Sequence record: PZ386977.1
Length of the DNA stretch: 64,000 nucleotides
Source of the DNA: a phage
Reading direction: 5' to 3' (one strand)
Position 1 is the stretch's first letter. Every line of letters starts with the position of its first letter. Positions 21,347 through 62,623 of this stretch are shown in pieces. A model generated the notes under the pieces. The model saw nothing but the letters and a program-made list of their open reading frames with translations. It was not told the DNA's origin and did no database searches. A program made the translations under genes and the position numbers.

Positions 21347-21544
21347 ATGTTTAAACTTACATCGTTAATCAACGCTATTAAAGGCAATAAAAAGAAAACT
21401 GCTATCGCCGCAATAGTTGTAGGTGGCATTATTTCATGGAACTTCGGGATTGCACCATTGTTAGTTGCCCATGGTATTATAGTTCCTTCTGTTCCATTGG
21501 ATACCGTAGTTGATTTGGCCTTTGCTATTATAGGACTTGTTTAA
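21347..21544 (+). CDS. small membrane protein (65 aa), plus strand
   Basis: ATG with strong AAGGAGA RBS; two predicted TM segments; one of only two plus-strand genes. Confidence 0.5.
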   Translation: MFKLTSLINAIKGNKKKTAIAAIVVGGIISWNFGIAPLLVAHGIIVPSVPLDTVVDLAFAIIGLV

Positions 21545-41846: not shown

Positions 41847-42038
41847 TTATTCGTAGAAGTCAGTAACTGTCCATGCGGAATTGCGATTAGACATTATTTT
41901 ATTATACTCATCTTTAAAAGCAGATTTGAGCATTTGTTCAGTAACAATATGTTCTTCACCTGAAAACGTATTGGTCAAAACATATTTTTTAATTTCAGGA
42001 ACAACGAGAAGATGTTGTCCGGTTGAATACTCCGCCAT
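41847..42038 (-). CDS. hypothetical protein (63 aa)
   Basis: ATG ORF with GGAG RBS. Confidence 0.45.
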   Translation of the reverse strand: MAEYSTGQHLLVVPEIKKYVLTNTFSGEEHIVTEQMLKSAFKDEYNKIMSNRNSAWTVTDFYE

Positions 42039-42062
42039 TATAAATCTCCGTGTTTAAAGCAA

Positions 42063-42070
42063 TATAAATA
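42063..42070 (+). promoter_or_regulatory. late-promoter-like TATAAATA on plus strand upstream of the HNH endonuclease gene
   Basis: exact octamer about 45 nt upstream of plus-strand ATG at 42116. Confidence 0.4.
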
Positions 42071-42115
42071 GGTTTATCAATTTATCTGTTGCTGTATCAA
42101 ATAAGGATTTAGTAA

Positions 42116-42832
42116 ATGAATTATAACTCAATATACGAAAAGCTTATCACCAATGCTAAATCAAGAAGTTTAGATGGTTATACAGAACGTCATCACATTA
42201 TACCACAATGTTTAGGTGGAAGTGATGATGCTTTAAACTTAGTAGACTTAACACCAGAAGAACATTATTTGGCACATCAACTGTTGGTAAAAATCCATCC
42301 AGATAATGCCTCTTTAATATATGCTGCTCGTATGATGACCATATCATCTCCTAAAGCAGATAGAAGCAAAAACAAATTATTTGGATGGCTTCGACGTAAG
42401 AATCAGGAAGTTCAAAAGAATAAAGAATTCACTGCTGAAACCCGTAAGAAAATGTCCGAGTCTGCAAAAAATAAACCAAAGATTACCTGTCCACATTGTG
42501 GTTTAACTGGAACTGAAGGAAACATGCGACGTTGGCATTTTGATAATTGTAAACAAGGTCCAACGCCTAAAATAGTAAAATTATCTGATGATGAAAAACA
42601 GAGGATAAGTTCTAAACTTAAAACAATAGAGTGGAAACTCCACACATGTGTACACTGTGGTCTAGAAGGAAAAGCTTGCAATATAGTTCCTCATGAGAAA
42701 AACTGTAAACTTAATCCTAATAGAATAAAACCTAATGTAACAATAGTGGAATGTCCATACTGCTCTAAAAGTGGTTCTATATCAAATATGAAAAGATGGC
42801 ATTTCGATAATTGTAAATATAAGCCTCATTAA
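42116..42832 (+). mobile_element. free-standing HNH homing endonuclease gene with three C-terminal zinc-finger repeats
   Basis: 238 aa; HNH core YTERHHIIPQCLGG...EHYLAH; three repeats of CPxCG...NMxRWHFDNCK; opposite strand to all neighbours; overlaps gene 46 stop by 4 nt. Confidence 0.8.
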
Positions 42833-44517
42833 GAGGCTTTCATTACAGTAAATCGTCCAACTTTACTCATCTGAAGATGTTGTCCATACGCTTGTGGGTC
42901 ATGGTCTCTGTGACTAATTATAAACACGTTTGCATCGGTTAGAGAGTTAAGAATTGTTGAAATAGCTTTAATACCTTCAGAATCAGTCGCGGAATCCATG
43001 ACTTCGTCCATAATTAATGTATTGATTCTAACACCAGAGACCTTTTCAGCAATATCTCGCCATGTAAACAACAATGCGATATCGATACGTGCCTTTTCAC
43101 CTTGACTAAATGAAGCATAACTAAAATCTTCACGACCACGTGATTTTATAGATTCATTGAATTCTTCGTCAATAGAAAACACATAATCAGCTTCCATGAT
43201 TTTAAGGTAATGGTTAATCTGCTTGTTGAACAGAGGCACATATTTTTTAATGATAGCACCTTTAATACCAGAATCTTTTAACATATCTGTGATAATACCA
43301 CGATGGTATTTTTCAAGAACGATATCTGATTTTGTTTTAATGATTTTATCAAGTTCTTTTTGAAGCAAAGCTATCTCATCGGCATGGTCGATAAATTCAG
43401 CTGAGGCTTGTTCTATTGCAGCTTTAACTTTCTTAGCTTTATCAATAGTGGCAATCATTGCTTGTTTCTTGGTACGAATATCAGATGCAAGGTCCTGTTT
43501 AGTCTTAACATTAGCTCTATATTCGTCCACTAGGACACTCAGATTATCTCTGTGAGAGGTAAGTTGCTCGAATGAGTGATTACATTCATGAAGCTTATCG
43601 GTAATCTTAGAGACAATAGGATCACCCTGGTGCAACTGTGATGCACAAGTAGGACATGTGCCACCGTCATGATACATCTTAATAACTTTGTTATATGAGT
43701 CGATTTTAGATTTAATCAAGAATGCTTCTTGTCCGATCTTGTTGAATGCCTCAGTAGGGTCTTCGTCAAGAACGATATTAAGTAGACGCTCGTTAGCTTC
43801 TTCAATTTCTGCTTTTAATGACCGAGCTTCTTTGGCTAGGTCGTCATACATATTCTGTAGACGCGCTACATTATCACCAGATAATTTCTTTTGACGTTCG
43901 ATATTCTCATTATAAATCTTAATTTGTTGGATAACACCATCTTTCTTGGCATCGAGAACTTGTCCCTGGGAATTAAGTTCTCGAACTTGAGACTTATTGA
44001 TTTTATCCATTTCGGCAAGTGTTCCAACTTCTAATAAGTCTTCAACAAGCTTTCTGCGAGCAGGGGTGCTAAGAGCCATGAAAGGGGTATACCCTGCCGT
44101 CCCAAGCACAACGATCTGTTTAAAAGACGCGTATGACATTCCGATGCTACGTTCAAATTCTTCTTGGAAGTCGCGACTGCTGGCAGATTCATCAAGACGA
44201 ACACCGTCAACGGAGATTTCGAAAATATTGGGCTTTTGGCCACGTTTAATGAAGTATTTTTTATCATCGAATTCCATCCAAAGCTCAACTAAGAGCTCTT
44301 TCTTGTTCGTGCTATTAATGATTTGTCCTTTCTTAACATCACGAAATGGTTTACCGAAAAGTCCGAAAGTAATGGCTTCTAACATCGTAGATTTACCACC
44401 GCCATTTTTACCAGTGATTAATGTCTTTTGGACTTTATCTAATTGGATATCAATAGGATTCCCACCTACCGACATGATGTTTTGATAACGAACACGATTT
44501 AATTTAAATGATTTCAT
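42829..44517 (-). CDS. 46: recombination endonuclease subunit (Rad50/SbcC-like ATPase)
   Basis: 562 aa; Walker A GKNGGGKST, coiled-coil middle with CPTC zinc hook, C-terminal signature. Confidence 0.85.
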   Translation of the reverse strand: MKSFKLNRVRYQNIMSVGGNPIDIQLDKVQKTLITGKNGGGKSTMLEAITFGLFGKPFRDVKKGQIINSTNKKELLVELWMEFDDKKYFIKRGQKPNIFEISVDGVRLDESASSRDFQEEFERSIGMSYASFKQIVVLGTAGYTPFMALSTPARRKLVEDLLEVGTLAEMDKINKSQVRELNSQGQVLDAKKDGVIQQIKIYNENIERQKKLSGDNVARLQNMYDDLAKEARSLKAEIEEANERLLNIVLDEDPTEAFNKIGQEAFLIKSKIDSYNKVIKMYHDGGTCPTCASQLHQGDPIVSKITDKLHECNHSFEQLTSHRDNLSVLVDEYRANVKTKQDLASDIRTKKQAMIATIDKAKKVKAAIEQASAEFIDHADEIALLQKELDKIIKTKSDIVLEKYHRGIITDMLKDSGIKGAIIKKYVPLFNKQINHYLKIMEADYVFSIDEEFNESIKSRGREDFSYASFSQGEKARIDIALLFTWRDIAEKVSGVRINTLIMDEVMDSATDSEGIKAISTILNSLTDANVFIISHRDHDPQAYGQHLQMSKVGRFTVMKAS

Positions 44518-55833: not shown

Positions 55834-56138
55834 TATAATGTTCTCTCAAATTTGTGGAAGCATTTACGACATTTCAATTTCAAGTTATCAGTGGTCCAGT
55901 TAACCAGTTGGACTTGGATAGTTCCACATTCCGGGCATGGATGTTTTGCTGCCGATTTGGCAGCATTTTCACGTCGTTCAACCATTTTCATTATTTCGTT
56001 CCATGCCGGAGGAACGAACTCTTCTTCACCGTGGATTTTATCTCGCTGAACAAATTCAATCTTTGAACTATCGTCAATAAACTTAACCAAGCCATGATTA
56101 GTGCTCATATCAATATCCTCTAAAAGACGTAGTTTCAT
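55833..56138 (-). CDS. zinc-ribbon protein (101 aa)
   Basis: C-terminal CPECG...CRKC. Confidence 0.5.
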   Translation of the reverse strand: MKLRLLEDIDMSTNHGLVKFIDDSSKIEFVQRDKIHGEEEFVPPAWNEIMKMVERRENAAKSAAKHPCPECGTIQVQLVNWTTDNLKLKCRKCFHKFERTL

Positions 56139-57088
56139 TATAACACCTCAATGGCATTTCGTAAACCGTCCGCTTTCGCATTCAGAGCTTTTAACGATTT
56201 AGTTTGTTCTTTAATCTGGGCTTCGACTTCTTTCAGACGAGATTTGAGGTACTCACGTTCTTCGCTCAAGTTGTCAACTTTTTCTACTTTAGGTTCTTTA
56301 ATAGTCTTAAGTTTATACTCGTTAGGGTTCTTCAACTTAATTCGGGTACGAGAACTATATAACATTGAACCGTTATCTTCGGATTCGTCGAACGTTTCAA
56401 CAACATCCATAGTCTCTAACAATGTAATAAGTTTATAAGACAACGAACGAATAGTTTTGTTGTGCTTATTAATTTCTTCGGCTTTCATGGTACCGAGATT
56501 ACGTGAGTAGTAATAAGGAACCTGGATATCAATTGATAATGATGCGTTACCATTACCAGTTGGTTTGAATACTGCAGTAACCCAATCTTTAACATGAACT
56601 TTATTTGTACGGCCATCACCGCCAGTGAATAATTTACGAGAATGTTTAAAAAGCATATTCACTTGTTTATTGAATTCACAAGCAAATTTATCAGCAAATT
56701 TAGTTTCAGGAATGGTAGATAACCAATCAGCCAAATGAGTCTTTTTAACATCATTAACAATAGTGAATTCAACCAAATCGGTTTTAGATGTCACAGATTT
56801 AATAAAGCTCGGCTTCATAAAGTTTTTAATGTTATCGCGAGCTACAGTAGAAGATAATAAACGAGAACGTTTGAACCATTGAAGCAGGGTCCCTAATGAA
56901 TGAGAATACGCATTCTGAGTATCTTTACAGATATGATTTTCTTGGCCTGTGTATGTACCAAAATCGCGAAGAATACCACTTACTACATCTCGGTGCGGAA
57001 CATCAAATCCTAGTGCACCAGAAGCGCGCTGAGCATGAACGTTAGCGATAAGACCGGCAAAGTATTCAATGTAATGTGAACGTGTCAT
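56138..57088 (-). CDS. hypothetical protein with C-terminal coiled coil (316 aa), tandem gene A
   Basis: ATG ORF with own early promoter; C-terminal heptad-like segment. Confidence 0.55.
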   Translation of the reverse strand: MTRSHYIEYFAGLIANVHAQRASGALGFDVPHRDVVSGILRDFGTYTGQENHICKDTQNAYSHSLGTLLQWFKRSRLLSSTVARDNIKNFMKPSFIKSVTSKTDLVEFTIVNDVKKTHLADWLSTIPETKFADKFACEFNKQVNMLFKHSRKLFTGGDGRTNKVHVKDWVTAVFKPTGNGNASLSIDIQVPYYYSRNLGTMKAEEINKHNKTIRSLSYKLITLLETMDVVETFDESEDNGSMLYSSRTRIKLKNPNEYKLKTIKEPKVEKVDNLSEEREYLKSRLKEVEAQIKEQTKSLKALNAKADGLRNAIEVL

Positions 57089-57116
57089 AATATTTTCCTC
57101 TCGTTAAGATAGATTC

Positions 57117-57146
57117 ATTATACTCCGACCATCCTTGGTTGTAAAC
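57117..57146 (-). promoter_or_regulatory. early promoter GTTTAC-18-TATAAT (CCAACCATCCTTGGTTG cassette)
   Basis: same cassette as 14394-14423. Confidence 0.6.
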
Positions 57147-57150
57147 TATT

Positions 57151-58110
57151 TTATGATTTTAATGCATTCATTGCGTTAAAAAGTTTAGAATACTGCAACT
57201 GGAGATTCGTTACAACACTTTGAGCATCACGAAGCTTAGCTTGTGCTTTGTCAAGTTCAACAGACAGTTGGTCCATAGTGACCTTGATTTGATTGTAATG
57301 GTAATCTTCGACCGGAAGAAGGTCATTAGAAACATTTAGTTTTACTGCAGACAGTTTGCACACATTTGGCGAACCTTTAAACATTGATTTACCCGAAGTA
57401 GAATAAGCACTTAGGACTTCGGCCTGTTCAATTGGGGTCCCAGTAAGCGATGCTTCAAACAATGCATTTTCCTTTTTAAGATTTTGATAGTATTCAGAGT
57501 CTTTGTGCCACCATGGCGCAGGAACCTTTTTACCAATAGATACACGAGCCTGGATAGCGATATGGCCCTTATTCTTGATAGGGTCGACAATATTAAGCTC
57601 ACGAGAATAAATTGCTTTAATCTGGTGGATATTATCACCTAAAACTTCCAACGCTTGGTGGAATACACGAGCAACGTTATCATTCTTAGGTTTATACGTA
57701 AGAGTGAACTCATTCTCACTGATAACCATGATTTCCAACTTATCGTAAGTATATTTCAAATGTTTCATGTTAATTGCTTGAGGACGAATACGAGAAGCAA
57801 TGGCCATCAGATTGTTAAGGTTATTCCGGAACTGCTTAGCGAAATATTGTCCTTCACCGCCAATACAAAAATTACGAAGTTTCTGTTTGGCTAGTAAACG
57901 GCTGAACTCACCATTTTTAATGAACTCTTTAACGGGTGTGTTAGTAACGCATTCAAATTGAGTAAACGTACGAGAATTAATCCCATAATACGAACAGATT
58001 TCCTCAATCTCTTCAGGAGTCTTTACAGGCATACGGATAGGATTAGGTTCTGGGGTATATGCGTTCGAGGTAAATTCTTTGATAAGTTCTCTACGTGTAA
58101 TAAAAGCCAT
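57151..58110 (-). CDS. hypothetical protein with C-terminal coiled coil (319 aa), tandem gene B
   Basis: ATG ORF with own early promoter. Confidence 0.55.
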   Translation of the reverse strand: MAFITRRELIKEFTSNAYTPEPNPIRMPVKTPEEIEEICSYYGINSRTFTQFECVTNTPVKEFIKNGEFSRLLAKQKLRNFCIGGEGQYFAKQFRNNLNNLMAIASRIRPQAINMKHLKYTYDKLEIMVISENEFTLTYKPKNDNVARVFHQALEVLGDNIHQIKAIYSRELNIVDPIKNKGHIAIQARVSIGKKVPAPWWHKDSEYYQNLKKENALFEASLTGTPIEQAEVLSAYSTSGKSMFKGSPNVCKLSAVKLNVSNDLLPVEDYHYNQIKVTMDQLSVELDKAQAKLRDAQSVVTNLQLQYSKLFNAMNALKS

Positions 58111-58136
58111 TTTATATTCCTCATGTTGAAAAATTT

Positions 58137-58166
58137 ATTATACTCCAACCATCCTTGGTTGTACAT
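58137..58166 (-). promoter_or_regulatory. early promoter (ATGTAC-18-TATAAT), same cassette family
   Basis: TTATACTCCAACCATCCTTGGTTGTACAT. Confidence 0.55.
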
Positions 58167-59161
58167 CATTCCTTAAGAAGTTTTACTACCTGAATAAGAT
58201 TAGCTCGTTCTGTTTTATTTTTACCGTTTAAGCCTGCTAATCGTGAGATTTCATCGTCAGTTTGTTGAATAGTTACATTAAGTTCATTAATCAAAGCTTC
58301 AAAGTATTTGATTTGCTCAGCATGTTTTGATTCAAATTTCTGAACCGGAATAACGTCTTGGTTTAGTTCGTCAATAAGGTCTTTAAGAGCATCTTCTTGG
58401 TTGATATCATATTCAACTTCTTTTATTTCTTCAACGAGCTCGTCTTTATATCTAACGTCTTTTAGTCCTGGTGCTGGTCCTGAAATCTCTTCTTTAAGAG
58501 TACAAACATACCCAATACGGTATCCAGTGCCGTCTCGCTTGATATCAACTTCGTCGATAAATCCACAATGTTTAAGTCCAGAGCCGATTATGTCAAAATA
58601 TCCTTGACGTCGTCCTTCAAACGTTACACGAACTACTAAGATAGTTTTGCCACCAACCTTTTGAAGCTCACATTTATAAAAGTTTGTTGAACCTGAATAA
58701 CGTGGATGAGTTTTAAAGTTCATCTGACGATCTAGGCCCATTTGTAAACGCGCTGTTACAGCCATAAAACGTGTTTGGTTCTCGTTAAGATGAGCAACGA
58801 TCCATTTCAAAGGCATTTTACACTGTTCACGACCGAACAAATCAGTACGTCCTAGATTACGCAGGATGTTGTTAGAGTTAATCATCGACAGAACGTTAAG
58901 TTTATTCAGCGCGCTGAAGATTCCATCAGCCATTGATTTTCCATAACCTTTACACGCTTTAATAAGTGCTCGTGGCAGATTAGTATAGATTTCAGACGGC
59001 ATATGAAAATCAAATTTACTAGTCAGTAATTGATGAACTTGGATAGCAATTTGCTCATAATTAAGTGCTCTGCGATCGTTATGGTCTTTAAACCACACTT
59101 TAATCTGTGAAGCACATAAACCGTTAATTTCATGTTTTACCGCATCAGATGTAATGCTCAT
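58166..59161 (-). CDS. hypothetical protein with C-terminal coiled coil (331 aa), tandem gene C
   Basis: ATG ORF; degenerate copy of the promoter cassette upstream (about 59195-59225). Confidence 0.55.
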   Translation of the reverse strand: MSITSDAVKHEINGLCASQIKVWFKDHNDRRALNYEQIAIQVHQLLTSKFDFHMPSEIYTNLPRALIKACKGYGKSMADGIFSALNKLNVLSMINSNNILRNLGRTDLFGREQCKMPLKWIVAHLNENQTRFMAVTARLQMGLDRQMNFKTHPRYSGSTNFYKCELQKVGGKTILVVRVTFEGRRQGYFDIIGSGLKHCGFIDEVDIKRDGTGYRIGYVCTLKEEISGPAPGLKDVRYKDELVEEIKEVEYDINQEDALKDLIDELNQDVIPVQKFESKHAEQIKYFEALINELNVTIQQTDDEISRLAGLNGKNKTERANLIQVVKLLKE

Positions 59162-59223
59162 AACTATTTCCTCAGATTGAATTGGAACTCAAAACCATTA
59201 TAACCCGTCCTTGGGTAAAGCGT

Positions 59224-59751
59224 TTATGCGTGAACCGTCTTTAAACGTTCTTCAAATTTCCGAAGAGTACTAATACGTTCTGCTTTCTGTTTTGTATAGT
59301 TTGCAATACGTTCTGAAGTGAGAGCGTATCGTTCGTTTACTGTTTCTTTCATGAAGTCAGGGATTTCACGAGAAGCTTTAATTTCATCAAACTTATCGAG
59401 TACTGCCTGGTCTTCAGCGATTAAATTTTCGTACATCTCGATATCTTTCTTGATAAACTCGATATCTTCCTGGGTTACTTTGGATAAACGAGATGCTTTA
59501 TCCTTTTTGTACTGCTCGTTAGTTTCACGAGACCAGAATAATGTACGTTTTTTGTTAGTGTTTTTGTAGACTTCCACAATTCCAACTGAATCGATGATAA
59601 CAATCCAATTCCAGTGAGATTTGAAAATCTGACCTCCGTCCACGGTAATCTCGTTACCATAAGCAACATCGTTAAAGAACTTGCTTTGTGCTTCAGATTT
59701 AAATTTACCGTCGTTATAATTTACCAGGTTGAAAATATCTTTAGCGTTCAT
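59224..59751 (-). CDS. hypothetical protein (175 aa)
   Basis: ATG ORF with GGAGG RBS inside promoter/stem-loop cassette. Confidence 0.5.
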   Translation of the reverse strand: MNAKDIFNLVNYNDGKFKSEAQSKFFNDVAYGNEITVDGGQIFKSHWNWIVIIDSVGIVEVYKNTNKKRTLFWSRETNEQYKKDKASRLSKVTQEDIEFIKKDIEMYENLIAEDQAVLDKFDEIKASREIPDFMKETVNERYALTSERIANYTKQKAERISTLRKFEERLKTVHA

Positions 59752-59778
59752 GTTTTACCTCCAGTAGTTGATAGGTCT

Positions 59779-59807
59779 ATAATAACATAACCATAGACCT
59801 TGTAAAC
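59779..59807 (-). promoter_or_regulatory. early promoter (GTTTAC-17-TATTAT) with AGGTCTAT/ATAGACCT inverted repeat
   Basis: PeSL-like cassette. Confidence 0.55.
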
Positions 59808-59809
59808 AA

Positions 59810-60097
59810 CTAAAAGAAACTTTTTTCGGTATTTTTTCCACTGAACCAAACAGACTTCGGGGTTTTTTGTAATTTTTCAGATTTAAGTTTCTCTTCCTGT
59901 TCTTTCTTATATACACTCTTGTCGTACTGGAGCATCTCTATGGCATTCTTTTGCAAATGATCTAAGGTAATTAAGGCTTTAGTTTTTCCTTTCAAGGAAG
60001 AGTCCTGGCGAACTTCCTCGCTATATTGCATCGTAGAACTAACCATACGATGTGCATACAGTTCGAATGCGGCTTTGATTTTTTGCATAAAATCCAT
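59810..60097 (-). CDS. hypothetical protein (95 aa)
   Basis: ATG ORF. Confidence 0.4.
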   Translation of the reverse strand: MDFMQKIKAAFELYAHRMVSSTMQYSEEVRQDSSLKGKTKALITLDHLQKNAIEMLQYDKSVYKKEQEEKLKSEKLQKTPKSVWFSGKNTEKSFF

Positions 60098-60235
60098 AAC
60101 ATATCCTCTTTGATTTGTACATCATTATTTTTAAATATTTCTATGCCCTCAGTAGGTTCCTGGTGTCCTTCTTTGAGGTAAGCCATATGATTATTCATCT
60201 TTATGGCTTTTGTTACCTCAGGACTTCCTGTAAGC

Positions 60236-61216
60236 TTATTTCAGTAAAGTTACTTCAGAGATTTCCTCCCAACCATCTTTATCAGTTGAAATAAAATCTG
60301 CTACATAAAGAGCCGTACGTAATGATACATTGCGAAGACGAGATACGTTAGCCTTCATCCAGGACAATGCTTTGTACGTTTCAGCATCAGTCAAGCCACG
60401 TTTCTGCATCATGTCAGTAGATAATATTACATCTTCAACTCGAACCATAATCTCTTCATTAGAGTGTACTCCAAGATCGAGATATACTGAACGAGATACT
60501 AAAGCTTGAAGGTGAGGAGCAAGTTTCGAACCACGTTCTAACTCTTTATCGATATCAACGTTTGTAATGAAAACGATAGTACCTTCAAACTCAAATTCTT
60601 TATCGATACCCTTATCATCAAGATAAGATGATGCAGTGCTCCAGCAAACTTTGCGTTTATCACCGGTATCTAATGCGGCTTTAAGAAGGTTCAGGATGTC
60701 CATATCCGAGAATACGTCAACGTCGTCGATTAAGAGAACGCTGTCTGCATCACGGTTGAGCCAAAGTTGTTCGTAAAGGCCAATACCAGAGATTTTACCA
60801 TTAATGCTTTTGTATTTGATGAAACCATTATCATTAGCACTATTAAGTGCTTTATCCAGAGAATACGTCTTACCAATACCGGCTGCACCTGAAATAATGA
60901 GTGAACGAATTTTGCCATCGATAATGCCATTCGTCATCATGTTCATTACTTTAAAGCGTTTGTTGATACGAGTTTTCATATCTTCAGTGCTTTCAACAAC
61001 TGCAACTGGTGTTGTCTCAACTCCTTCCATTACGATGTCTGATTTGAAGACCCATACTCCACGTTCAGAACCATCAATCATAACGAAAATTTTACCATCA
61101 CCTAAGTGGGAACATTCAGGATTAAGCTTTGCTGGGAACCAGGTCTTTGTGGCAACATAAGATCCAGAGATTTCGTTATTACGATAGATACCTTTTTTGA
61201 TTTGAACGTTGAACAT
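60236..61216 (-). CDS. P-loop ATPase (AAA-like) with N-terminal extra domain
   Basis: Walker A GAAGIGKT and Walker B VLLIDDVD; start trimmed to ATG after the promoter (MFNVQ) with GGAGAA RBS. Confidence 0.6.
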   Translation of the reverse strand: MFNVQIKKGIYRNNEISGSYVATKTWFPAKLNPECSHLGDGKIFVMIDGSERGVWVFKSDIVMEGVETTPVAVVESTEDMKTRINKRFKVMNMMTNGIIDGKIRSLIISGAAGIGKTYSLDKALNSANDNGFIKYKSINGKISGIGLYEQLWLNRDADSVLLIDDVDVFSDMDILNLLKAALDTGDKRKVCWSTASSYLDDKGIDKEFEFEGTIVFITNVDIDKELERGSKLAPHLQALVSRSVYLDLGVHSNEEIMVRVEDVILSTDMMQKRGLTDAETYKALSWMKANVSRLRNVSLRTALYVADFISTDKDGWEEISEVTLLK

Positions 61217-61254
61217 TTTATTCTCCAATTTACTCATTTCGTTTCGATAGGTCT

Positions 61255-61283
61255 ATAATAACATATCCTAAAAGCATGTACAC
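61255..61283 (-). promoter_or_regulatory. early promoter (GTGTAC-17-TATTAT)
   Basis: upstream of the ATPase gene. Confidence 0.45.
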
Positions 61284-61314
61284 TACTTTTTTTAAAATAT
61301 TTTAACCCCCTAAA

Positions 61315-61330
61315 GGGACCCGAAGGTCCC
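61315..61330 (-). terminator. hairpin, weak terminator candidate
   Basis: GGGACC-CGAA-GGTCCC perfect hairpin; only short T-run on minus strand. Confidence 0.35.
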
Positions 61331-61335
61331 CACAT

Positions 61336-61602
61336 TTACTTATCGCACTTAGCAACATAATTAGGCATATCACAGAATACAGAGTGAGTAACTACTCTGC
61401 CCTTTGACCATGCTTCAGTTGCTTGTCCAGCCGTGCTATTAATATAGCTTGATTTGATATTCTCAATACCCTGAGAATGTGAAGCATTTACCGAACCATT
61501 GGAAGGCCCAGAAGACTGGTTACCACCAGCTCCTGCACCCGTGGTAGCACCAACAGAGAACGCCATCATTACTGCGAATAAACCAATTACTAATTTTTTC
61601 AT
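61336..61602 (-). CDS. small secreted protein (88 aa) expressed from a late promoter
   Basis: signal peptide MKKLVIGLFAVMMAFSVGA; Gly/Ser-rich linker; conserved Cys pair; TATAAATA about 33 nt upstream. Confidence 0.5.
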   Translation of the reverse strand: MKKLVIGLFAVMMAFSVGATTGAGAGGNQSSGPSNGSVNASHSQGIENIKSSYINSTAGQATEAWSKGRVVTHSVFCDMPNYVAKCDK

Positions 61603-61633
61603 ATTTACCTCAAGTGAATGGTTATTTATCTAT

Positions 61634-62623
61634 TTATTTATAGTAAGAATTATGATTTTCGAGATAGACTTGCTCAAGGAAATCATCCCAGAAACTCATA
61701 TCTACTTTTTGTTGCATACCGTTCTTAGCGGCTTGTTCTGATGCTTGTTCAACTTGGTCAACGATATCTTCTAGGAATTCTTGTACAGTTTTAAACGTAT
61801 GTTTACCAAGCTTAACATCGAGAATAAATGGAGCATCCTGAAGCGGGTAAACCAGGTCGCCGGTTTTGTAAATTTCCAATAATTGAAGTCCACCACGACA
61901 TGCATGACTCAATGCTTTCCAGTCAATACCTTCGTTAGCTTCCGCCTTACGAGCACGTTCACCATAGTTCTCTTCCAGTTTAACCAGGATGGCATTGAAC
62001 TCTTTATTGGTTAACGTGTCTTGGAATTTACGGTCTAACAGATTATAGAATGTTTGCTTACCTGTTTTCTCGTTTTCGGTTTCAACCCATGAAGCAAATT
62101 CACCTACAGGCAGAACATTCTTCATATGTGATAAACGAATTACTGCACCATTATCAAAGTATTGTCCCCATTCATTAGAACGTTTAAGGGCTTGACGAAG
62201 AACAGCCAGTCGAGAACCCTTGACACCGTATTTAGAAGCTTGCTTACGGACATACCCTAAATAAGATTTCATGTTAGTGGTATAGAAACGAGACCTGTTA
62301 TCTTGAATATACTTCCATACATCAGGCAAATCAGATTTAACTACTAGACTTGGTGGAGTGTGAAGCATATCTAATGCAACAGTTTCACCATCCGCAGCTA
62401 GTTTAAAGAAATATTTGAGACTATACAACTCATGGTCCACGTCGTCTTTTGTGTTCTTAGAAGATGTGTTATTCGTGTTCTTGCTCATATGTTCTTTAAC
62501 GTTACCTGTCAAGATATCACGAGCATGAGGGACATAAATTTCTTTAAAATCAACGTCAGATTCAGGAGTAGATGTTCCATAAAGGTGGCTACCAAAGTAG
62601 CTTTTCATAATTGTTTTCATCAT
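61634..62623 (-). CDS. Pol-beta superfamily nucleotidyltransferase (329 aa)
   Basis: GS-x10-DxD motif (YFGSHLYGTSTPESDVDF) plus downstream acidic DVDHE; C-terminal helical region. Confidence 0.6.
   Translation of the reverse strand: MMKTIMKSYFGSHLYGTSTPESDVDFKEIYVPHARDILTGNVKEHMSKNTNNTSSKNTKDDVDHELYSLKYFFKLAADGETVALDMLHTPPSLVVKSDLPDVWKYIQDNRSRFYTTNMKSYLGYVRKQASKYGVKGSRLAVLRQALKRSNEWGQYFDNGAVIRLSHMKNVLPVGEFASWVETENEKTGKQTFYNLLDRKFQDTLTNKEFNAILVKLEENYGERARKAEANEGIDWKALSHACRGGLQLLEIYKTGDLVYPLQDAPFILDVKLGKHTFKTVQEFLEDIVDQVEQASEQAAKNGMQQKVDMSFWDDFLEQVYLENHNSYYK
61635..61642 (-). promoter_or_regulatory. late promoter TATAAATA
   Basis: exact octamer on minus strand upstream of ORF 61336..61602. 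Confidence 0.45.

Follow-up and report, generated by a model that had tools for sequence, protein, structure and literature searches.

The endonuclease gene and its neighbors

The window (the whole 64-kb stretch of DNA analyzed here) comes from a Mosigvirus phage, RB69-like and T4-type. A 2-kb query around the gene discussed below is 98.2% identical to Mosigvirus mar005p1 and 96–98% identical to RB69-type phages. Genes 44, 45, rpbA, 45.2, and 46 follow one another in that order on the minus strand, as checked against the annotated records of RB69 and a20. Between gene 45.2 (41847–42038, minus strand; an ORF that is also annotated in the RB69 and a20 records) and gene 46 (42829–44517, minus strand), which encodes a Rad50/SbcC-like recombination nuclease subunit, lies a plus-strand homing endonuclease gene of 238 aa with an ATG start (42116–42832), supported by the ORF list, homology, selection, and an AlphaFold2 model. 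The gene is convergent with gene 46, and the stop codons of the two share the sequence TTAA (42829–42832). The initial annotation had placed a plus-strand ORF here that overlaps the stop codon of gene 46, and the ORF is real; the start that it gave, 42063, is the first base of the promoter sequence TATAAATA (42063–42070, plus strand) and not of the ORF.

The endonuclease ORF is the sole plus-strand ORF of at least 110 aa that lies outside any minus-strand ORF in the 64 kb. A second credible plus-strand ORF (21347–21544; 65 aa, hydrophobic) sits in a gap between minus-strand ORFs and is probably the other gene meant by the statement that the endonuclease is one of only two plus-strand genes; given this one further candidate, the statement is plausible. 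No paralogues of the endonuclease were found in the 64-kb window. A row of five ORFs of similar size (316–333 aa) occupies positions 56138–62623 on the minus strand.

The encoded protein

The protein matches PHROG 655, "homing endonuclease" (E = 9e-65), and a large-database search returned 2884 homologues at E < 1e-5, many with NUMOD3 motifs. The HNH catalytic motif ERHHIIPQCLGGSDDALNLVDLTPEEHYLAH (42185–42277, plus strand) covers residues 24–54 and contains E24, H26, H27, N41, H50, and H54. It follows the pattern HH-x13-N-x8-H-x3-H, and H26, H27, N41, H50, and H54 are invariant in an alignment of 103 homologues (A2), which upholds the earlier description of an HNH core. The invariant columns of A2 are Y3, Y7, E24, H26, H27, P30, C32, G35, N41, L45, H50, H54, L57, M74, C213, C216, H229, and C233; among them are the residues of the HNH motif and the predicted zinc ligands of the last finger.

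Against single Pfam models the window protein scores below threshold: 12.8 bits for HNH (PF01844; cut-off 21.4) and 13.5 bits for HNH_5 (PF14279; cut-off 27.5), both at E ~0.1. Among the 103 homologues, 61 match PF01844 and 33 match PF14279 at E < 0.01. The A2 profile aligns with the catalytic HNH motif of EcoKMcrA (YtEkHHiiP..GG....N...L....H; E = 0.0024). In the AlphaFold2 model (pLDDT 94), the motif is modeled as two strands (24–27 and 42–45) and a helix (47–60), followed by three hairpin-plus-helix units that carry the putative CCHC zinc fingers. A PDB sequence search with the single protein gave chance matches of the zinc-ribbon type only, a search of NCBIfam gave nothing above the cut-offs, and sequence and fold searches gave no significant match to any solved HNH homing enzyme. 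The gene is under purifying selection, with a dN/dS of 0.06 against the mar005p1 copy and of 0.15–0.3 against the orthologues described below.

The three fingers have the pattern C-x2-C-x11/12-H-x3-C. Finger 1 (CPHCG...NMRRWHFDNC; 42488–42550, plus strand; residues 125–145) is modeled as a beta-hairpin (122–133) and a helix (134–141). Finger 2 (CVHCG...CNIVPHEKNC; 42647–42706, plus strand; residues 178–197) is divergent, with strands at 175–186 and a helix at 187–195 in the model. Finger 3 (CPYCS...NMKRWHFDNC; 42752–42814, plus strand; residues 213–233) contributes the A2-invariant residues C213, C216, H229, and C233, and is the only finger conserved across the family and in MobE of phage T6. 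The initial annotation had reported three copies of CPxCG...NMxRWHFDNCK. The description is correct in its general form, though not in every residue: finger 1 alone fits exactly, finger 3 has S for G, and finger 2, a divergent version of the CCHC type, lacks RWHFD. The "triple repeat" is thus two near-identical fingers and one divergent finger. The best Foldseek matches are the finger arrays of CTCF and Tramtrack, but at E ≥ 0.1. The fingers may serve as a DNA-recognition array.

In the linker, a helix assigned by eye as NUMOD3-like (KEFTAETRKKMSESAKN; 42422–42472, plus strand; residues 103–119) aligns with the MobE segment REVSMETREKISRALKG. Pfam NUMOD3 is matched at E < 0.01 by 62 of the 103 homologues and was not matched by the window protein.

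Promoter, leader, and stop-codon hairpin

The T4-type late promoter consensus TATAAATA (42063–42070, plus strand) lies 53 nt before the ATG, within the inserted DNA. The window contains three copies on both strands together (about seven are expected from shuffles), and at this rarity a copy 53 nt before the ATG is more than chance. The sequence is retained at −41 to −53 in the orthologues from Tequatrovirus, Dhakavirus, and Roth77; the two most distant orthologues, those of RCIP0009 and leB, have a TAAATA variant (cTTAAATA and CCTAAATA). The late-type promoter sequence that the initial annotation had noted upstream on the plus strand is present and conserved. A scan for sigma-70-type promoters around the gene found no excess over the shuffled expectation.

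The 5' leader (42071–42115, plus strand) carries a Shine–Dalgarno sequence, AAGGA (42103–42107), 8 nt before the ATG. In a comparison of upstream regions, the blocks TTTATCA and GCTGTATCAAA are common to the window and the orthologues; they may have a regulatory role.

At the other end of the gene, a hairpin (AAGCCTC-ATTAA-GAGGCTT; 42821–42839) spans both stop codons. The fold of 42805–42860 has an energy of −17.8 kcal/mol, with z = −6.5 on the plus strand and z = −4.9 on the minus strand, and the hairpin is kept in the orthologues with differing stem sequences. It is a candidate bidirectional transcript-end or terminator structure. A terminator scan around the gene did not call this hairpin because no T-run follows it.

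A cassette present in some Mosigvirus genomes and absent from others

The gene belongs to an 807-bp cassette (42034–42840). The anchor sequences GGTTGAATACTCC and CATTACAGTAAATCG are 807 bp apart in nine carriers and 68 bp apart in seven non-carriers (RB69 and six other Mosigvirus genomes). In an alignment with RB69, the final three codons of gene 46 come from the cassette (KAS* in the carrier, TVS* in non-carriers), which also adds an Ala codon at position 2 of gene 45.2. The gene was found in 14 of the 571 phage records that match the locus, representing 12 distinct phages; in the remaining records, including RB69, HX01, and ATK47, only the flanks matched. Comparison of the locus in relatives, which had been proposed as a check on the mobile-element reading, thus shows that the ORF is not universal. 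RB69 itself was reported to be without any homing endonuclease genes (PMC2993671).

In the non-carriers (RB69 and the same six genomes), the 54-bp spacer between the genes is invariant. In RB69, this spacer contains an inverted repeat, GTGGT-CATTATA-ACCAC (L001, ~2160–2176), which is gone in the cassette carriers. The flanks are otherwise 96–99% identical between carriers and non-carriers. A search of the Mosigvirus flanks, covering 1.5 kb to the left and 2.4 kb to the right, revealed no SNP fixed between the two groups; therefore, the lineage of the window has neither a co-conversion tract nor a protective polymorphism beyond the junction itself.

The cassette is flanked by two exact copies of a 13-nt direct repeat, GAAGATGTTGTCC, at 42008–42020 (in gene 45.2) and 42873–42885 (in gene 46). 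Both copies encode GQHL, and a slightly varied form is found in non-carriers and in T4. The repeat was considered as a target mark or as the trace of an old event in which part of the gene 46 3' end was duplicated into gene 45.2. This idea was set aside: at the peptide level, the N-terminus of 45.2 and the C-terminus of gp46 show marginal similarity (p = 0.02–0.07), which is absent in three lineages, so the repeat is probably due to chance.

Other variable genes occur in the neighborhood. In the carriers NRG-P0074 (L009, 5635–6489), F2 (L010, 5606–6466), and G2469 (L011, 5605–6465), a second endonuclease gene, annotated as MobD-like, lies directly upstream of gene 46 and replaces 46.1, so that two homing endonuclease genes bracket gene 46 in these three phages; the window itself has the ordinary 46.1/46.2 arrangement. 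In phage G2285 (L014, 1609–2498), two additional ORFs that are absent from the window and from RB69 lie between gene 45 and rpbA, and this interval is another variable insertion point.

Orthologues at the same site in other lineages

Orthologues with 44–76% identity are found at this junction, likewise convergent with gene 46, in Tequatrovirus fFiEco06, Dhakavirus IME281, the Klebsiella phages RCIP0009 and Roth77, and Pseudotevenvirus leB, and also on metagenomic contigs. Among Tequatrovirus-type records, 60 of 532 have the gene, including RB32 and RB33. A single endonuclease lineage holds this site in no fewer than five lineages of T4-like phages. Relative to the window, fFiEco06 shows 81% identity in gp46 and 58% in the endonuclease; the corresponding values are 66% and 67% for IME281 (85% in the HNH domain) and 67% and 76% for contig L025. 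The divergence of the endonuclease is out of step with that of gp46, which is consistent with lateral spread.

Diverged tracts adjoin the gene in two of these backgrounds. When T4, which lacks the cassette, is compared with fFiEco06, which has it, the 45.2/rpbA side is 100% identical to within 50 bp of the junction, whereas at the gene 46 3' end the first ~300 bp are 62–92% identical before identity returns to 98–100%. A metagenomic contig of the Mosigvirus type (L026) has a ~240-bp tract of about 62–88% identity at the gene 46 3' end (L026 ~1570–1810, corresponding to window 42832–43068). In a second comparison, identity over the tract was 76–77%. This tract adjoins a third endonuclease allele, and farther into gene 46 the contig is 97–99% identical to the Mosigvirus background. 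These 240–300-bp tracts look like co-conversion scars. They match no sampled locus and therefore came from unsampled donors. That they lie on one side only suggests that the break occurred toward gene 46. The 3' end of gene 46 (~42829–43130) is thus a candidate target and co-conversion zone.

Mosaic alleles of the finger array

Within Mosigvirus, an exchanged module made up of the linker and finger 2 plus finger 3's first half (42583–42796, plus strand; residues ~156–225) separates the allele of the window and mar005p1 from the commoner allele of a20. Residues 1–155 of the two alleles are 100% identical and residues 156–225 are 40% identical, with sharp breakpoints in the DNA. The closest protein to the exchanged segment of the window is the metagenomic protein P0003 (69%). 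A third allele, P0004, shows 96% identity in the HNH domain but 65% and 40% in the two finger regions. Thus, near-identical HNH domains (96–100%) are combined with at least three finger arrays (40–65% identical) at one genomic site. A 21-nt repeat encoding WHFDNCK occurs at 42533–42553 and 42797–42817, and its second copy coincides with the right breakpoint; the allele breakpoints lie at or near the repeated sequence encoding RWHFDNCK. The copy in phage ESCO47 (L015, 3202–3918) reads ERHYIIP for ERHHIIP, which is an H27Y change in the HNH motif, and this copy is likely to be decaying and possibly inactivated.

Comparison with known homing endonucleases

MobE of T6 is a full-length homologue of the window protein, with 33% identity over 239 columns (E = 7e-34) and ~50% identity across the first 60 aa; in T4, a tblastn search gave a match with 99% coverage (E = 1e-25). 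Both proteins have their HNH domain at the N-terminus and, at the C-terminus, a CCHC finger with the sequence ...RWH(F/Y)D(N/K)CK, which is the layout of the Mob class (N-terminal HNH domain and C-terminal zinc finger; PMC10448857). The single finger of MobE aligns with finger 3; in the place of fingers 1 and 2, MobE contains repeats of the NUMOD3 type. In T4 and T6, the mobE gene is a free-standing HNH endonuclease gene between nrdA and nrdB (Wilson & Edgell 2009, PMC2790892), its product makes a strand-specific nick in nrdB of T2, and the gene is passed on at high frequency (PMC2790892). The activity shown for MobE so far is nicking, in vivo only. Like mobE, the window gene lies between conserved genes, overlaps the end of a neighbor, and is sporadic in relatives. 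The mobE gene is promoterless, has the orientation of its neighbors, and contains an internal terminator (PMC2790892), whereas the window gene is antisense and has its own late promoter. Among the endonuclease genes of T4, all but segD are oriented as their neighbors are (PMC2988022). The insertion sites of the two genes differ (nrdA/nrdB and 45.2/46), and the targets are therefore presumably different as well.

Another close relative is the orthologue of RB32, RB33, and other Tequatrovirus phages, which shares the 45.2/46 site, the convergent orientation, the length of 238 aa, and the three fingers, has TATAAATA at −41, and is 58% identical to the window protein. In comparison with T4, it comes with the diverged ~300 bp at the 3' end of gene 46, whereas the window copy has no such tract. 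This orthologue has long been present in the RB32 record and has been counted among mob-like genes (PMC2993671, Table 5), and the records of such phages annotate it as "putative site-specific intron-like DNA endonuclease" or "homing endonuclease". In the searched literature, no experimental work on this endonuclease lineage, including the Tequatrovirus orthologue, was found.

I-TevIII of RB3 and I-HmuI of SPO1 are characterized phage HNH homing endonucleases. I-TevIII has zinc fingers and cuts both strands, whereas I-HmuI nicks. These two enzymes share with the window protein the two-part design of an HNH domain connected by a linker to a DNA-binding region, as discussed for MobE (PMC2790892), but they are intron-encoded and the window gene is free-standing. 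SegF and SegG of T4 (cited in PMC2993671 and PMC2988022) are GIY-YIG enzymes rather than HNH enzymes and have no sequence relation to the window protein, but their intronless homing and localized marker exclusion represent the biology expected here: a free-standing enzyme cuts the adjacent conserved gene of a relative, and its own gene is co-converted together with flanking markers.

Homing, domestication, or decay

We consider the gene to be an intact, free-standing HNH homing endonuclease of the Mob type (MobE-like), carried on an 807-bp cassette with its own late promoter, with a probability of about 0.8. Part of this best explanation is that the cassette homes, or homed recently, into the 45.2/46 junction. 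The initial annotation had called the locus a typical mobile element, and this finds support in the anatomy of the cassette, the homology with MobE, the sporadic presence of the gene, its purifying selection, the site and promoter conserved across genera, and the mosaic flanks in relatives, with co-conversion-like tracts in other backgrounds.

In this scheme for a mobile endonuclease, late gp55-directed RNA polymerase would start at TATAAATA and transcription would oppose that of all neighboring genes, and the stop-codon hairpin would probably end or stabilize the transcript. The C-terminal array, consisting of the NUMOD3-like helix and the three CCHC fingers, would bind DNA, and the HNH domain would nick or cut the DNA of co-infecting, cassette-free relatives at the junction of 45.2 and gene 46 or close to it. 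Phage recombination would then repair the break from the carrier genome; this would bring in the cassette, at times together with a few hundred bp from the 3' end of gene 46, and the outcome would be localized marker exclusion. The carrier genome would probably be spared because its junction has the 68 bp replaced. The target would either span these 68 bp or sit in the last ~300 bp of gene 46. A target spanning the 68 bp would explain self-immunity without flank polymorphisms; a target in the last ~300 bp of gene 46, which the scars in other backgrounds suggest, would leave the lineage of the window unprotected by sequence.

An unlikely alternative is that the gene encodes a domesticated HNH/zinc-finger protein that no longer homes and is kept for a function of the phage's own, for example, to hinder competing phages or parasites or to regulate gene 46 via convergent late antisense transcription. 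Such a role would fit an intact ORF under purifying selection, an antisense orientation and promoter conserved in all orthologues, and Mosigvirus flanks that do not distinguish carriers from non-carriers, and co-option of endonuclease-derived genes has been noted in the literature (PMC10448857). However, no more than about a tenth of the Mosigvirus-like and Tequatrovirus-like records carry the gene, which is therefore dispensable; diverged flank tracts adjoin it in other backgrounds; and the catalytic H27Y change in ESCO47 is what a selfish gene would be expected to show as it decays.

That same ESCO47 copy could be taken to mean that the gene is an inactive relic, once mobile and still open but no longer cutting and passively carried. 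The lineage of the window has no co-conversion tract, and defunct endonucleases are known in T4, such as I-TevIII (PMC2790892). Still, the window copy retains all of the invariant catalytic and zinc-ligand residues, its promoter and ribosome-binding site are intact, and dN/dS is 0.06 against mar005p1 and 0.15–0.3 against the orthologues, which makes a relic quite improbable. That the ORF arose by chance on the antisense strand of an intergenic insert and is not a gene, as the weak Pfam scores might be taken to say, is refuted by the 2884 homologues, the PHROG match, the confident fold, and the purifying selection.

Implications for T4-like phages

The homing endonuclease is of a well-known kind, and database records and pipelines already label the ORF as such. 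One more such element is unsurprising in T4-like phages, where homing endonuclease genes of the Mob and Seg types are known to abound. Points of modest interest are the antisense orientation combined with a late promoter of its own that is conserved, an array of three fingers rather than NUMOD3 repeats, the alleles of that array, and the fidelity to one site across genera. According to a 2010 review, there was no convincing evidence for movement of the intron-encoded homing endonucleases of T-even phages between phage clusters (PMC2993671); the present free-standing lineage bears on the same kind of question. With RB69 reported to be free of homing endonuclease genes and flanks that are 96–99% identical, Mosigvirus isolates with and without the gene are ready-made for crosses that measure homing and marker exclusion.

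Two further ideas are tentative and rather doubtful: that the finger array is a recombining specificity cassette, or that antisense late transcription has been co-opted to lower gp46 late in infection. If the former is true, it could reflect an arms race in which the endonuclease swaps DNA-binding modules to follow variants of its target in gene 46/45.2. The finger-array alleles on a constant HNH domain offer a simple system for learning how such arrays set target specificity.
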